Origin: a virus
Lineage: Duplodnaviria > Heunggongvirae > Uroviricota > Caudoviricetes
Virus record (IMG/VR): IMGVR_UViG_2531839665_000009
DNA length: 7,366 nucleotides
Strand: one strand, 5' to 3'
Shown: one piece after another, positions 1,642-6,685 of the stretch
Numbering within the stretch: position 1 is the stretch's first letter
Layout: each line of letters starts with the position of its first letter
Translations under genes and position numbers: made by a program
The notes under the pieces: generated by a model
The model's database searches: none
The model's input: the letters and a program-made list of their open reading frames with translations, nothing else
Told to the model about the DNA's origin: nothing

Positions 1642-4600
1642 TCAGCTGATACTGATCCCTGCCGTGGATTTTTTCATGACCACAACCAGTAAATCACTGA
1701 TGTACGTTGTCGGCGTCCAGTTGTTCGCACCGGCCGACGACACATTAAACGTCAGGGTGACATGACCCCGCCCTGCCGGCATATCTATCACCGATGAGAA
1801 CACCCGGCTGACATCCGTTGCCGGTTCATGGAAAATCTCAACCCCGTTCTTCAGCACCTGCAGCTTACAGGTGGAATACCAGTACGACTGCTGATTCGGG
1901 CTGTTGAAATTCTGGTGTTTCGTCCCGCGAAACAGCACCGGGGGAATGATGATCTGCCGGTCGAAGCCCTGGTCATCGTAAACTGTGACGGTTACCGTCC
2001 CGCTGGCATAACTGTTATTCCGGGGAAAGGCTTTCCCCACCGTCTTCACCAGGTCGCCTTCAATCTGGTTTGCAGACAGTTTCCCTCTGATGACACAGTT
2101 CTCGTTAATGGTGACATTATTGAGCGTGCCGGTATTCGCGGTAATTGCTCCGCTGATATCCGCGTTCCTGGCTGTCAGCTTCCCTTCCGGCGTCAGGGAA
2201 AACGTCGGGGGGTTGCCGGATGACGTGATACTCGCCGCAAACAGACGCTTCAGGAACACGTCGTTCATGAACAGCTGATTCCCCTGCGCCACAAATAACG
2301 GAGTGCTGTTGCCGCTCTCCGGATTTATCATCGCGATACGGTCAGCCAGCAGCAGTATGTTGCTCAGTGGCTGGCCATCAGTATCCTCAATCCCCGCTCC
2401 AATACCGGCCACATAGGGAATGCCGTCTTTCGTTTTTTGAACCTTCAGCATGTACAGCGCAGCCAGGTCATCATTTGTGTCCTTCTGCACGCGCTGTATC
2501 TGCTGAATGGTGGCGCTCTGGTCTTCCAGCGTTTTACTGACCGTCTGTGTGATTTCATTGCGGGTTTCGGTGATGGTGGTCTTCATCTCCGCCATCTCAT
2601 CCGCAAGCTGGCTGTTGTCTATCAGCTCCCATAGCCCCTGAGCCAGATGCAGTTTTCCTATTTTTTCCCGAAACAGCCCCAGATACCCTTCTGCATCATT
2701 GCTGGCCCGGCCACTGGCTTCCACAAAAGCAGATTTCCCCACCAGGTTGACGCTGCGCACGTAAAACCAGAAATCCTTCCCGGGCTTAATGTGCGGGCCG
2801 GATACACTCCACTGACTGCCGGTCCCCAGATAACGGGCAGAGGTTTCCACCTGAGATGTGTCTGCGATTTTTGTCTCCGAAAACCAGAACTCAAACTGTA
2901 CCGTCGGGTCATACACCGCAAGACGCGGGACCGCTGTTATCTGAAAATAGCCCGGTGTCAGCTCAATCGTGGCGGGTACCGCAGGTGCATTAATCCTGAA
3001 CGTGGTGGTGGCCGGTTCCCCCTGCTGGCCATAACTGTTAATCGCCCTGACCGTCAGGGTGTATTCCCCCGGCGGCAGACCGCTGAAACGGTGCTCTGTA
3101 TCCGCGGTGATGGCGGTGGTCACCAGACGGCTGTCCTCACCGCTTCCACTGGTCAGGCGCAGACTGAAGCGCACGCCCTTCACCACCCGCGGCGTGTCCC
3201 ATTTCGCCTGCGCCAGATACTGACCGTCAGCTGCGCTCACCTCCACCGTCAGGTGCTGCACTGCCGGAGGGATGACGCTGTTCAGGGTGCCTGACTGCGG
3301 CTCAAAGCTGGCCCCGTTATCCACGATGGCTTCCTTTTCCGGTACGTGCTGCACCGCCGTGATGGCAAAGGTGCCGTCCGTGTTTTCCCGGATGGAGACA
3401 CAGCGGAACAGGCGACGACGCAGTGACGGCAGGGAGAGTCCCCATACACCGTATGTCTCCACACCATCAGGCAGGGTGCTGACCTGTATCCGGTCCGGCG
3501 CGGGGTGTGCAGTGATGGCCACGCTCACCGGCTTACCGCTGCCGTTAATCAGGTTCACCGTGGCGGCACCTGTCTCCGGCAGGGTCACCTCACGGTCCAG
3601 TGTCAGGGTGCGGCTGGCGGCATCGATGGACAGGATACGTCCGCCGGTCATGGTCCCGGCATAGTCGTTATCACAGATTTCAATAATGTCACCGGGTGTG
3701 TGACGCAGCCCCTGTGACCCGAGCGTGAAATCCACCGTCTGCGTTTCCAGCAGTCCGGTCTTTATCACCCACAGCCCGGCACGGTGGGCCTGACCGCGAC
3801 TGGTGCAACCGAACGCATCCATCTTCAGCAGGTTGCGCCCGTAGCGCAGTATGGCTTCCGGGTCTTCCACCAGTTCCGTGGAGGTCTGCCAGCCGTTCTG
3901 CGGGTCGGTGTAATTCACCTCCACCGCCGTGTGGCGGTCCTTCAGGGCGCTGAAGCTGTAGCGAAACCCCACGCCGTTATCATCCACCACCACATCGCAG
4001 TTGGTGTACGGCCACACCACATCCGACGGGCGGTCCTGAACGAACGTCAGCGTCTGGCCGTTCCATACCGGCATACAGCGCATCGCCGAGCAGAAATCAC
4101 TGAGAACGTCCCACGCCTTACGCTGTTGTGACAGGTACGCATTAAAGGTCATCCGCGGCTCTGTGCCCCCGAAACCATCCGGGACCGTCTGGTCGCAGTA
4201 CTGCGCAATGGCATACAGCGCCCATTTGTCCACGTCTGCCGCCCCCAGACGTTTTCCCATGCCGTAGCGCGGGTGAGTCAGCATGTCCCACAGGCACCAG
4301 GCCGGGTTGTTGCTGTATGCCGGTTTCAGGCTGCCGTCCCAGATGCCGCTGTACGTGCGTTTTTCCGGGTCATAGTTTGACGGCACCTGGATGATGCGAC
4401 CGCGGATATGGTAGTTCACCGTCATCTGCTGACCGCCAAACTGCTCCGCATCCACCTGCAGCCCCACAATCGCCGTGTTCGGGTAGCACTGTTTCACATC
4501 GATGATTTCGGTGTATGACGACCAGAGCGTCTTATTCTGCAGCTGGTCCGAGGTGCTGTCCGCTGTCTCCCGGACCATCCGGATGTTAAAAGGACGGGGA

Positions 4601-5118
4601 GGCAGATTACCCAGAATCACCGACGCCAGAAACTGCGAGGTGGTCTTGCCGTTAATGGTGACATCCTTTTCCGTCACCCAGTTACCGTTACGCTGTAACT
4701 GAATCAGCAGGCGGACGGATGTCGGGTTTCGGTCACCCTTTGACGTGGTCTGCACCAGTGACTGCACCCCGAAGGTGACCCGCAGGCGGTCAATGTTCGC
4801 GGATGTAATGGTGCGCGTCACCGGCTTTGCCTTCGTCACTTCCACGCCCAGTGCGGTTTCCGCCCCGGATGACTCAAAACCTTCCGGCGGTGTCTGCTCC
4901 TGCTCCCCGGCGCGCCAGACCGCTGTCACACCATGTATCACAGGATTACCGTCCGTGTCCGTCAGCGGGGTTTTGTTCACCAGAATACTCTGCAGCCCCT
5001 TCACCGGACCTTCCACCGGTCCCTCACCGATGGCATCAATCACGCTCATCATCTGCGTGGACTTAAGATTGTCCTTTGCCTCAACCGGCGTGTGCGCCCT
5101 GCCGCCACCTTTACCCAC
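1642..5118 (-). CDS. J: Tail tip / host specificity protein J (central tail fiber), 1158 aa, GTG start
   Basis: N-terminus [39 protein letters not shown] and long stretches throughout ([39 protein letters not shown]; [24 protein letters not shown]; [24 protein letters not shown]; VIDMPAGRG) match lambda gpJ (1132 aa) as I recall it. Single uninterrupted ORF. AGGAGAGGGGGA Shine-Dalgarno region upstream of the GTG. Confidence 0.95.
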
Positions 5119-5122
5119 TCTG

Positions 5123-5134
5123 TCCCCCTCTCCT
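5123..5134 (-). promoter_or_regulatory. Ribosome-binding site for J (AGGAGAGGGGGA)
   Basis: Purine-rich Shine-Dalgarno-like tract on the minus strand immediately upstream of the J GTG start at 5118..5116. Confidence 0.55.
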
Positions 5135-5162
5135 GTCTGATGTCTGAATCTGTTTATGCCCC

Positions 5163-5190
5163 AAAAACGACAGGCACCCCGGAGGGTGCC
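5163..5190 (-). terminator. Hairpin with downstream T-run on the minus strand (weak terminator-like element) in the I-J spacer
   Basis: 7-bp GC stem ggcaccc / gggtgcc (plus 5173-5179 and 5184-5190, loop cgga). On the minus strand it is followed after a 5-nt spacer by TTTTT (plus A-run 5163-5167). The spacer is longer than in canonical intrinsic terminators. Confidence 0.3.
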
Positions 5191-5327
5191 CGTGTCATGA
5201 CGGAATAAAATTTCTGAATTTCTTCACATTTTCTGTACGCCCCCGTGGCAGATATCATTCCCGGGCGTTACAGTTTTTTCGGGCCAATAAAAACAAAACT
5301 CCCTGTGGTTAATCTTCATTTTCTGTT

Positions 5328-5358
5328 CCCGCAGCCTTCGGTCACTGCGGGATTTTTT
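5328..5358 (+). terminator. Plus-strand intrinsic-terminator-like hairpin immediately 3' of the I stop codon (antisense to the late operon)
   Basis: 7-bp stem cccgcag / ctgcggg (5328-5334 and 5345-5351) with an inner C(UUCG)G-type tetraloop motif (ccttcggtca), followed on the plus strand by A-TTTTTT (5353-5358). No T-run follows it on the minus strand, so it is oriented for plus-strand transcripts only. Confidence 0.45.
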
Positions 5359-5363
5359 CGCTT

Positions 5364-6044
5364 TTATGCCTGCCGCCCGATAACCACGACCTTTCCGCCA
5401 CCGCCTTCATCACGGGTACTGATGTCCTGGGAGATTCGCCGGGAGCCAACCAGCATTTCACCGTAAGGCACCGGCATCGGGTTCCCCTGGGCAATCATGT
5501 TATCCAGCGAGGAAAAGTACGTGTTCTGTCTGCCGTTATCCGTGCTTTTGTACTCCGGTACTTTAGCCTTCGGGGCCAGCATCTGGGCCACACCGCCCAG
5601 AATCATGCTGGCCCCCAGTGAAAACAGCATCGTGGTGGCAGAAAAACCACCGGCTGCCAGGGCTGAACCCCATAACGCCATTGATGCCCCGGCAGTGAAG
5701 AAAGAGCCCACGATGGCTGCCGCCCCCAGCACAATCTGCAGTCCACCCTTTCCGGCCCCGGCCAGTCGCGGCACAATGTGGATGACCGTTCCCTCACCCA
5801 GCTGTTCGTGAAGACGGGCGTACACCGCCTCCGGTGCCGTGTCCTCACCGCGAATACGTATCTGGTACCAGCCTTCGTTCATCTGACGGCGGAATCCCGG
5901 CATCTGCATCGACAGGGCACGGATGGCTTCCGCTGCCGTGTTCACATACAGGCTGAGGCGGCGGCCAAATCGTTGTAAATCCCCGTGAAGGCAGATACGT
6001 GCCAGTGGCGGTGACGCCAGGCTGAATGCGTTCGTCGTTGCCAT
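5364..6044 (-). CDS. I: Tail tip assembly protein I, 226 aa
   Basis: Translation (LASPPLARICLHGDLQRFGRR...VIHIVPRLAGA...LGAAAIVGSFFTAG...FSLGASMILGGVAQMLAPKA...DNGRQNTYFSSLDNMIAQGN...YGEM.VGSR.ISQ.IST.DEG) matches lambda gpI (223 aa) as I recall it. Start overlaps the K 3' end by 103 nt, the same overlap I recall for lambda K/I. Confidence 0.9.
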   Translation of the reverse strand: MATTNAFSLASPPLARICLHGDLQRFGRRLSLYVNTAAEAIRALSMQMPGFRRQMNEGWYQIRIRGEDTAPEAVYARLHEQLGEGTVIHIVPRLAGAGKGGLQIVLGAAAIVGSFFTAGASMALWGSALAAGGFSATTMLFSLGASMILGGVAQMLAPKAKVPEYKSTDNGRQNTYFSSLDNMIAQGNPMPVPYGEMLVGSRRISQDISTRDEGGGGKVVVIGRQA

Positions 6045-6685
6045 TTTTCGGAATACCTCTCCCGTTTACTCAGTTGTTCAGGCAGATGGTGAAGCAGTTC
6101 ACCGTTGCCGCAGTATATGGCGGCATGATTGGCCACCGATGCGCCAAAGCAGCACAGCAGGATATCGCCCGCCTGTGCAGAGGACAGGGGCACCCGGTAA
6201 AAGCCAGTCGCCTCCATATTGTCCAGGTACAGGTTCTGACCGTTGCGCCACCAGTCATCCTCACGCTCAAAATCCGGCATATCAATTCCCGCCAGATGGT
6301 AGGCATCCCGGAACAGCGTGTAACAGTCCGTCACCCCGTGCTCAAAGCGCCGTCCTGTCAGATGTGGCACACAGCGGAATTTATGAATTTCCCCCCGGCA
6401 GACCAGCCACCAGGACAGTGCACTTTTTATCTGCAGCCGCCGGTCGGCCTCGCTCAGCCAGGGCAGACCACCGGGATGACTGTGGACCAGTGCCACAATC
6501 TCCCCCTGCATCTCTGCCCGCAGCCAGTCTTCCGGTGCAATACGAAAATACGCCTCCGGCTCTGCAGAGATATTCACACAAGGGATATACCGCTCCCCCT
6601 CCGGCGTTCTCACCACGAAGCCGCACGACTCCGCAGGCACACACCGCCGGGCATGCACCAGAATCGCTGATTCAGTCTGTGTCAT
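5942..6685 (-). CDS. K: Tail tip assembly protein K, 247 aa (JAB/MPN N-terminal motif plus NlpC/P60-like C-terminal region)
   Basis: JAMM-type motif HSHPGGLPWLSEAD (H-x-H-x7-S-x2-D) in the N-terminal half and a downstream Cys/His pair (DCYTLFRDAY ... ANHAAIY) consistent with an NlpC/P60 fold. Position between L and I and the overlap with I match lambda K. The ATG at 6685 lies 23 nt downstream of the alternative-frame L stop; no strong Shine-Dalgarno is visible, so translational coupling is possible. Confidence 0.85.
   Translation of the reverse strand: MTQTESAILVHARRCVPAESCGFVVRTPEGERYIPCVNISAEPEAYFRIAPEDWLRAEMQGEIVALVHSHPGGLPWLSEADRRLQIKSALSWWLVCRGEIHKFRCVPHLTGRRFEHGVTDCYTLFRDAYHLAGIDMPDFEREDDWWRNGQNLYLDNMEATGFYRVPLSSAQAGDILLCCFGASVANHAAIYCGNGELLHHLPEQLSKRERYSEKWQRRTHSAWRHRHWHVSAFTGIYNDLAAASACM

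Follow-up and report, generated by a model that had tools for sequence, protein, structure and literature searches.

The window analysed here, a 7,366-nt stretch of tailed-phage DNA, carries lambdoid tail genes on its minus strand. Gene K (5942..6685) is followed by gene I (5364..6044), which codes for a tail assembly protein that shares 67% identity with lambda I over its C-terminal 182 aa, and by gene J (1642..5118), a 1158-aa ORF with a GTG start at 5118 that encodes the tail tip or host specificity protein and is 75% identical to lambda J over its N-terminal 165 aa. The copy in E. coli O26:H11 11368, with a spacer identity of 99.6%, is annotated in RefSeq in the order K (C40 peptidase), tail assembly protein and gpJ. 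Since J lies at 1642..5118(-) and I at 5364..6044(-), the I-J spacer spans 5119-5363 and is 245 bp long, as the first-pass annotation of this DNA had reported. That annotation gave the lambda gap as about 60 bp, and the lambda gene coordinates (I end 15444, J start 15505) gave exactly 60 bp, leaving 185 bp of extra length. The spacer is also less GC-rich (0.48) than J (0.58) and I (0.60), as had been judged by eye.

Next to J, a Shine-Dalgarno-like GGAGAGGGGGA was read from the sequence in the J leader at 5123..5133(-), with the GTG 4 nt downstream. A 7-nt unit, TGTCTGA on the plus strand, is repeated in tandem in this leader, with two copies in the window (5134-5147) and four in one IMG/VR allele with a 259-bp spacer (L097), so that the copy number is variable just upstream of the J ribosome-binding site. 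The start codon of J is GTG in the window's leader type and ATG in other leader types.

We compared I-J spacers anchored on the C-terminus of I and the N-terminus of J in 80 IMG/VR loci, 8 phage records, Sakai, O26 and lambda. This alignment across lambdoid prophages, which the first-pass annotation had proposed, gave size classes of 60 bp (lambda, from which the additional segment is absent), 234-259 bp (30 distinct sequences including the window, hereafter the 240-bp class), about 342 bp and about 851 bp. The spacer matched 147 phage records at 72-99.6% identity, and almost every one of these is a Stx-converting phage or a related lambdoid one. Among 5426 complete E. coli genomes, 781 contained a match, at a median of 4 places each and a maximum of 11; beneath the matches in these genomes, no record carried any annotation. 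A scan of genome contigs with protein I returned 12 loci, most of them distant or likely contaminants, and the IMG/VR scan was more informative. On short contigs assigned to Streptomyces flavalbus (L019), Parendozoicomonas haliclonae (L020) and a Clostridiales MAG (L026), protein I was 94-98% identical to that of this E. coli prophage, most likely through contamination.

Two hairpins lie in the spacer. Hairpin (a), TCCCGCAG-N10-CTGCGGGA followed by T6 (5327..5358, plus strand), has the form of a Rho-independent terminator. Its arms (5327-5334 and 5345-5352) are complementary at 8 of 8 positions, the T6 run occupies 5353-5358 on the plus strand, antisense to the tail genes, and the folding energy is -14 kcal/mol, in line with the earlier description of a terminator-like element oriented against the late operon. 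The inner C(UUCG)G-type motif noticed at that stage was located as CTTCGG at 5336-5341. The stop codon of I (5364-5366) begins 6 nt from the end of the T-run. In all 30 distinct 234-259-bp spacers the stem and the T-run are invariant and the loop is variable, and the hairpin is present in the 342- and 851-bp classes as well. Because the stem never varies, covariation gives it no support; the support for hairpin (a) is experimental and drawn from the relatives described below.

Hairpin (b), ACGGGCACCC-TCCG-GGGTGCCTGT followed by CGTTTTT (5163..5193, minus strand), was called by the terminator scan as intrinsic-terminator-like on the strand of the late operon, and its T5 run is on the minus strand (A5 at 5163-5167 on the plus strand), as had been described. 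The arms, 5170-5179 and 5184-5193, form 10 pairs, 7 of them G-C, around a 4-nt loop with CGUUUUU downstream, which is the structure expected of a terminator. The folding energy was -23.3 kcal/mol (z = -4.6), and none of 200 shuffled sequences folded as well. Across 13 distinct alleles, 98.5% of the cells are paired, that is 128 of 130 when the late-operon strand is read vs 121 of 130 on the opposite strand. One pair has shifted from C-G to U-A, and U.G intermediates are present; at four further pairs a single partner varies, and each time the outcome is G.U when the late-operon strand is read (C.A on the opposite strand). The substitution peculiar to the window, A to G at 5191 of the late strand, produces one of these G.U pairs. 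These changes indicate that hairpin (b) has been selected as RNA of the tail-gene strand. Moreover, the conservation of both hairpins over dozens of distinct spacer alleles shows that they are not there by chance.

Hairpins of the second kind were also found at junctions without its sequence. In the 342-bp class, its place is taken by an unrelated hairpin, AAACCCCGGTATC-TGCTG-ATACCGGGGTTT, with a T-rich run. The 60-bp lambda spacer carries the late-strand hairpin AAACCGCC-TGCG-GGCGGTTT followed by TTGTCATTT; it resembles the window in having a late-strand GC hairpin and then a T-rich run just upstream of the J ribosome-binding site, and differs from it in having no sRNA gene. Two distant enterobacterial loci, for which the spacer boundaries are approximate, have a hairpin with a T-run at the same place. 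Thus, the unrelated late-strand hairpins of lambda and the 342-bp class point to a general feature preceding J that is independent of the sRNA. Direct homology between the lambda spacer and the hairpin (b) region was considered and set aside as marginal, with a local score of 25 against 17.2 +/- 2.9 (maximum 32) for shuffled sequences.

The sequence that ends in hairpin (a) corresponds to an sRNA gene at 5277..5359 on the plus strand, antisense to the late operon, which we assigned through a covariance model match and two published probes. Tree et al. 2014 (PMC4104026, Table S2) reported EcOnc22, EcOnc23 and EcOnc24 in EHEC O157:H7 Sakai as homologous Hfq-CRAC peaks in the prophages Sp15, Sp14 and Sp11, all three on the plus strand, with a northern band of about 85 nt that was destabilised in an hfq deletion. 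When we placed these peaks on NC_002695.2, all three fell in I-J spacers, and the tail genes of the three prophages are on the minus strand. The published coordinates refer to NC_002695.1, so we applied an offset of about +137-142, which shifted the peaks into the I-proximal half of the spacer. The offset was calibrated on Rfam matches to AgvB and Esr41 and on stx2A, for which we assumed the older coordinates. The coordinates of Tree 2014 and Sy 2020 (NC_002695.1) both lie about 137-142 nt below the current RefSeq at 1.27-2.9 Mb. A placement of the EcOnc22 peak over hairpin (b) arose only with uncorrected Sakai coordinates and was discarded because of this shift between the two versions. The sequence of the northern probe (suppl. 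Table 3C) fixed both position and strand: it is complementary to the plus strand at 5863-5897 of the Sakai Sp15 locus (L002), directly 5′ of hairpin (a), and its reverse complement matched the window at 5308-5330(+).

PasB (pathogenicity-associated sRNA B) of EPEC E2348/69, prophage PP6, was reported as an 83-nt RNA at NC_011601 1466343-1466261(-), with a 5′ end estimated from read coverage only, 37 RIL-seq partners and log2 fold changes of -6.8 and -2.4 in an hfq deletion (Pearl Mizrahi et al. 2021, PMC8550237, Table S6). We found that its neighbours E2348C_1436 and E2348C_1437 are I and J, on the plus strand, and that the PasB probe AATCCCGCAGTGATCGCGGAGCT reproduces hairpin (a) of the E2348/69 allele as read on the late strand. 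Since both probes map to the region and the strand of hairpin (a), the EcOnc22-24 RNAs and PasB are, judging from these matches, two names for one family. We did not find this equivalence in the literature searched: beyond Tree et al., 'EcOnc22' appeared only in a review (PMC7873438), which gives its targets as unknown, and the 2026 Pas preprint of Zhu, Shabalina and Storz makes no mention of EcOnc.

To place the window in this family, we used a covariance model of 13 alleles that included PasB and EcOnc22 and left out the window's allele group. It matched the window at 5277-5359(+) over its full length with 54.5 bits (E=3.9e-11). The gene layout and the probe strands put the sRNA where the family resides, in the I-J spacer of lambdoid prophages and antisense to the tail genes. 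Like PasB, the window sRNA occupies the I-J slot on the antisense strand behind the same upstream block, shares the terminator stem CCCGCAG/CTGCGGG with its U-tail and the GAUCUUCAU and AACUCC motifs, and has a similar size (about 80 nt predicted vs 83 nt). It differs from PasB in the 5′ half, the loop and the promoter region, where its -35 and -10 elements are weaker, and its targets may differ. Overall, the window spacer is roughly 75-80% identical to PasB- and EcOnc22-type alleles. The EcOnc22/23/24 RNAs, Hfq-bound and about 85 nt long, likewise share locus, strand and terminator with the window sRNA; over the 115 bp of spacer closest to J the two are almost the same in sequence, whereas the spacer middle and the sRNA 5′ region diverge. 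On sequence grounds, the window copy is a divergent allele of a known, published sRNA family. The Sakai and E2348/69 alleles are the members with shown expression as Hfq-dependent RNAs of about 83-85 nt, and expression of the window allele is expected from their example.

Rfam 15 was searched over the whole window at the gathering threshold and over 5050-5450 at E <= 10, in both cases with no match, and the same scan recovered AgvB, STnc100 and Esr41 in Sakai control loci. The structure search that had been suggested for the spacer was run with zero matches, and the EcOnc22-24/PasB family, missing from Rfam as it is from genome annotation, is known only outside that database. Identity with AgvB, AsxR, Esr41 or STnc100 was excluded by position and by the lack of an Rfam match; AgvB occupies the PR′ moron site and not the I-J junction (Tree et al., PMC4104026).

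The body of the sRNA is single-stranded and C/A- and U-rich, with an AACUCCC motif and the conserved GUUAAUCUUCAU ahead of the terminator. In the predicted fold, most of the RNA is unpaired up to the terminator at its end, as is typical of Hfq-dependent sRNAs. From sequence and folding, the Hfq-binding module of the window would consist of UUAAUCUUCAUUUUCUGUU, the 8-bp GC stem of hairpin (a) and U6. Two stretches of the sRNA body are conserved in the alignment of the 30 distinct 240-bp-class spacers, GTTAATCTTC and an A(A/T)(C/T)TCC motif, and the latter, a pyrimidine-rich stretch, might base-pair with Shine-Dalgarno sequences. For a duplex in trans between the 5′ half of the sRNA and the ribosome-binding site of J, the calculated energy was -25.4 kcal/mol; because 23% of shuffled sRNAs equalled this value, it gives no support for such pairing.

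The spacer alignment further revealed two candidate -10 elements on the plus strand at 5253..5274, TATCAT (5253-5258) and TACAGT (5269-5274). The former aligns with TATAAT of other alleles and the latter fits a conserved TAnnnT pattern. Most alleles of the 240-bp class read TTCACA-16-TATAAT, and the E2348/69 copy matches the consensus at 11/12 positions, whereas the window reads TTCTGT-16-TATCAT and TACAGT in place of the TTCACA/TATAAT of PasB. A promoter scan called no sigma-70 promoter in the window allele, which bears out the remark in the first-pass annotation that no convincing one was visible; the 11/12 consensus promoter belongs to other alleles. The TAnnnT element lies 15 nt beyond the first -10 and 6 nt ahead of the 5′ end annotated for PasB. 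From the consensus promoter, PasB would be about 98 nt long and not the annotated 83, and in the window an RNA of about 93 nt is predicted from the first -10 and one of about 78-80 nt from the second. In the window's allele group, an inverted repeat ACGCCC...GGGCGT (5237-5268) lies over the first candidate -10, TATCAT; it is absent from PasB- and EcOnc22-type alleles and could be an allele-specific operator or a chance occurrence.

Upstream of these elements, the block 5194-5231 is near-invariant in all 240- and 342-class spacers and is the best-conserved part of the spacer. It contains a CRP-like site at 5210..5231, ATTTCTGAATTTCTTCACATTT (TCTGA-N6-TCACA), with 3 mismatches to the 22-mer CRP consensus. 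At a threshold of 3 or fewer mismatches this was the sole match in the window, with 0.02 expected by chance. Its centre, 5220.5, is at -60.5 from a start at 5281 and at -44.5 from the other candidate start. Class I CRP-dependent promoters have the CRP site near -61.5, upstream of a weak -35. By consensus match and position, 5210-5231 is thus a candidate class I CRP site. In the 342-bp class, homology to the window stops 5 nt beyond the CRP-like site, which marks the edge of the functional unit. In the published EPEC data, PasB was commoner in overnight static LB than in exponential DMEM (PMC8550237), a difference that fits catabolite control and does not prove it.

The longer spacers show what else this junction can carry. 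In the 342-bp class (336-343 bp; L066, L014 and L019), the sRNA gene, promoter and CRP-like block are kept. About 180 bp of unrelated sequence, containing a 60-aa ORF, replace the hairpin (b) segment there. In the 851-bp class, which makes up 23 of the 80 IMG/VR loci, sodC (PF00080, E = 3.9e-32) lies antisense to the tail genes; in the example L030 it is followed by its own hairpin after the stop codon and then by a PasB-like sRNA module with terminator (a), and the class is without the consensus sRNA promoter, the CRP-like block and hairpin (b). This phage-borne Cu,Zn superoxide dismutase moron sits at the same junction and in the same antisense orientation as the window's cargo, which is an RNA gene only. 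Its presence in other phages therefore identifies the junction as a moron slot, and the window's insert, absent at the lambda junction and equipped with terminator (a) and promoter elements, has the features of a moron. The junction seems to act as a cargo slot for the sRNA, sodC or the insert of the 342-bp class, with terminator (a) always kept. Alleles of the leader, of hairpin (b), of the promoter and of the sRNA body are combined differently from one spacer to another, which points to recombination within the 245 bp.

We consider it very likely that the 245-bp spacer is a lambda-type intercistronic region into which a PasB/EcOnc sRNA moron was acquired, with hairpin (b) as a separate late-strand terminator. 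The first-pass annotation had come close to this in proposing a small inserted transcription unit, possibly a small antisense or standalone RNA; a standalone antisense RNA is what we found, and the part that fell away is the notion that the two hairpins bracket one unit. That both hairpins belong to one inserted unit or its remnant, as opposed terminators around about 140 bp, has in its favour that they flank 133 bp of AT-richer DNA and that most 240-bp-class spacers carry both. However, hairpin (b) lies outside the sRNA unit, upstream of its promoter region, with a T-run that belongs to the opposite strand. In the 342-bp class, the sRNA is retained together with its promoter and the CRP-like block, but an unrelated hairpin stands in for (b); the 851-bp class has (a) without (b), and lambda has a (b)-like hairpin without the sRNA. 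These patterns indicate that the two hairpins assort independently and that only (a) belongs to the unit, making a single bracketed unit quite improbable. Nor did the idea of a remnant hold, because the relatives are expressed, Hfq-dependent RNAs. The function, which had been left open, is less so now that the sRNA family proves to be published already.

Two further readings concern the late-operon strand. Hairpin (b) might end a second small RNA on that strand, divergent from the PasB-like gene, so that the spacer would hold a back-to-back sRNA pair. The 45 nt upstream of (b) on the minus strand are the spacer's most conserved part and are A/U-rich, and A/U-rich sequence is typical of Hfq-binding sRNAs. 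In the -10 region, which reads TTATAA in many alleles, the sequence is almost symmetric, and a sense peak near J would have been dropped by the filter of Tree et al., which kept peaks antisense to, or >100 bp from, a CDS (PMC4104026). Yet no promoter was found on the minus strand in the window, Sakai or E2348/69, no such RNA is among the EPEC table entries listed, and the conserved block is equally explained as the CRP/UP region of the PasB promoter, so we regard a second sRNA as doubtful. The spacer could also code for a small late-strand protein, given that an ATG-started 31-aa ORF (5224..5319(-), MKINHREF...) is present in the window and that a 32-aa 'hypothetical protein' is annotated there in one record, phage PhiR12_1. 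This we judge most improbable: about half of the alleles have ACG in place of an ATG start (CTTCGT vs CTTCAT on the plus strand), indels break the frame, no Shine-Dalgarno sequence precedes it, and the region is antisense to an experimentally detected sRNA. The earlier impression that the spacer contains no credible small ORF therefore stands.

For the acquired sRNA moron with a separate hairpin (b), we propose the following mechanism. The short lambda-type region comprises a late-strand hairpin with a T-run, the Shine-Dalgarno sequence and the J start. From the plus strand, an RNA of about 80 nt would be transcribed from a promoter at 5253-5274, probably helped by cAMP-CRP bound at 5210-5231, beginning roughly at 5279-5281 and ending at about 5358 in the T-run of hairpin (a). 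The 3′ hairpin, the U-tail and the preceding U-rich stretch are predicted to bind Hfq, and the unstructured 5′ half would serve as the seed; the most likely mode of action of the sRNA is pairing in trans with mRNAs on Hfq. As for hairpin (b), we infer that in the lysogen it would halt unmodified RNA polymerase and that during lytic growth the Q-modified enzyme would pass through it. In published DESeq tables for the EPEC lysogen, the base means of I and J were about 5 and 15 and that of PasB 482-1082 (PMC8550237); I and J are thus almost silent there, a point against this reading of hairpin (b).

A cis role in addition to trans targets was also weighed. The sRNA is fully complementary to the late mRNA across the I-J region, and a perhaps CRP-controlled antisense sRNA and terminator (b) could jointly regulate the tail operon through cleavage or through collision with late transcription. 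We think such a switch unlikely; if it existed, it would allow tuning of the host-range protein J or silencing of leaky tail expression in lysogens.

With the spacer assigned in this way, the expanded I-J gap of Shiga-toxin and related prophages ceases to be an anomaly, since it houses a published sRNA that depends on Hfq. Alleles of the family are numerous and vary in the presumed seed, and the set of targets may therefore vary between strains. The sRNA family itself was already known under both names; the modest additions made here are the equivalence of the two names, a promoter model that includes a CRP-like site, evidence that ties hairpin (b) to one strand, and the other cargos found at the junction. 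In Sakai Sp15 and Sp14 (L002 and L003), the J annotation is split between two overlapping ORFs (ECs_2943/2944 and ECs_2719/2720), implying a frameshift, and the sRNA gene beside the split J is intact in both prophages.
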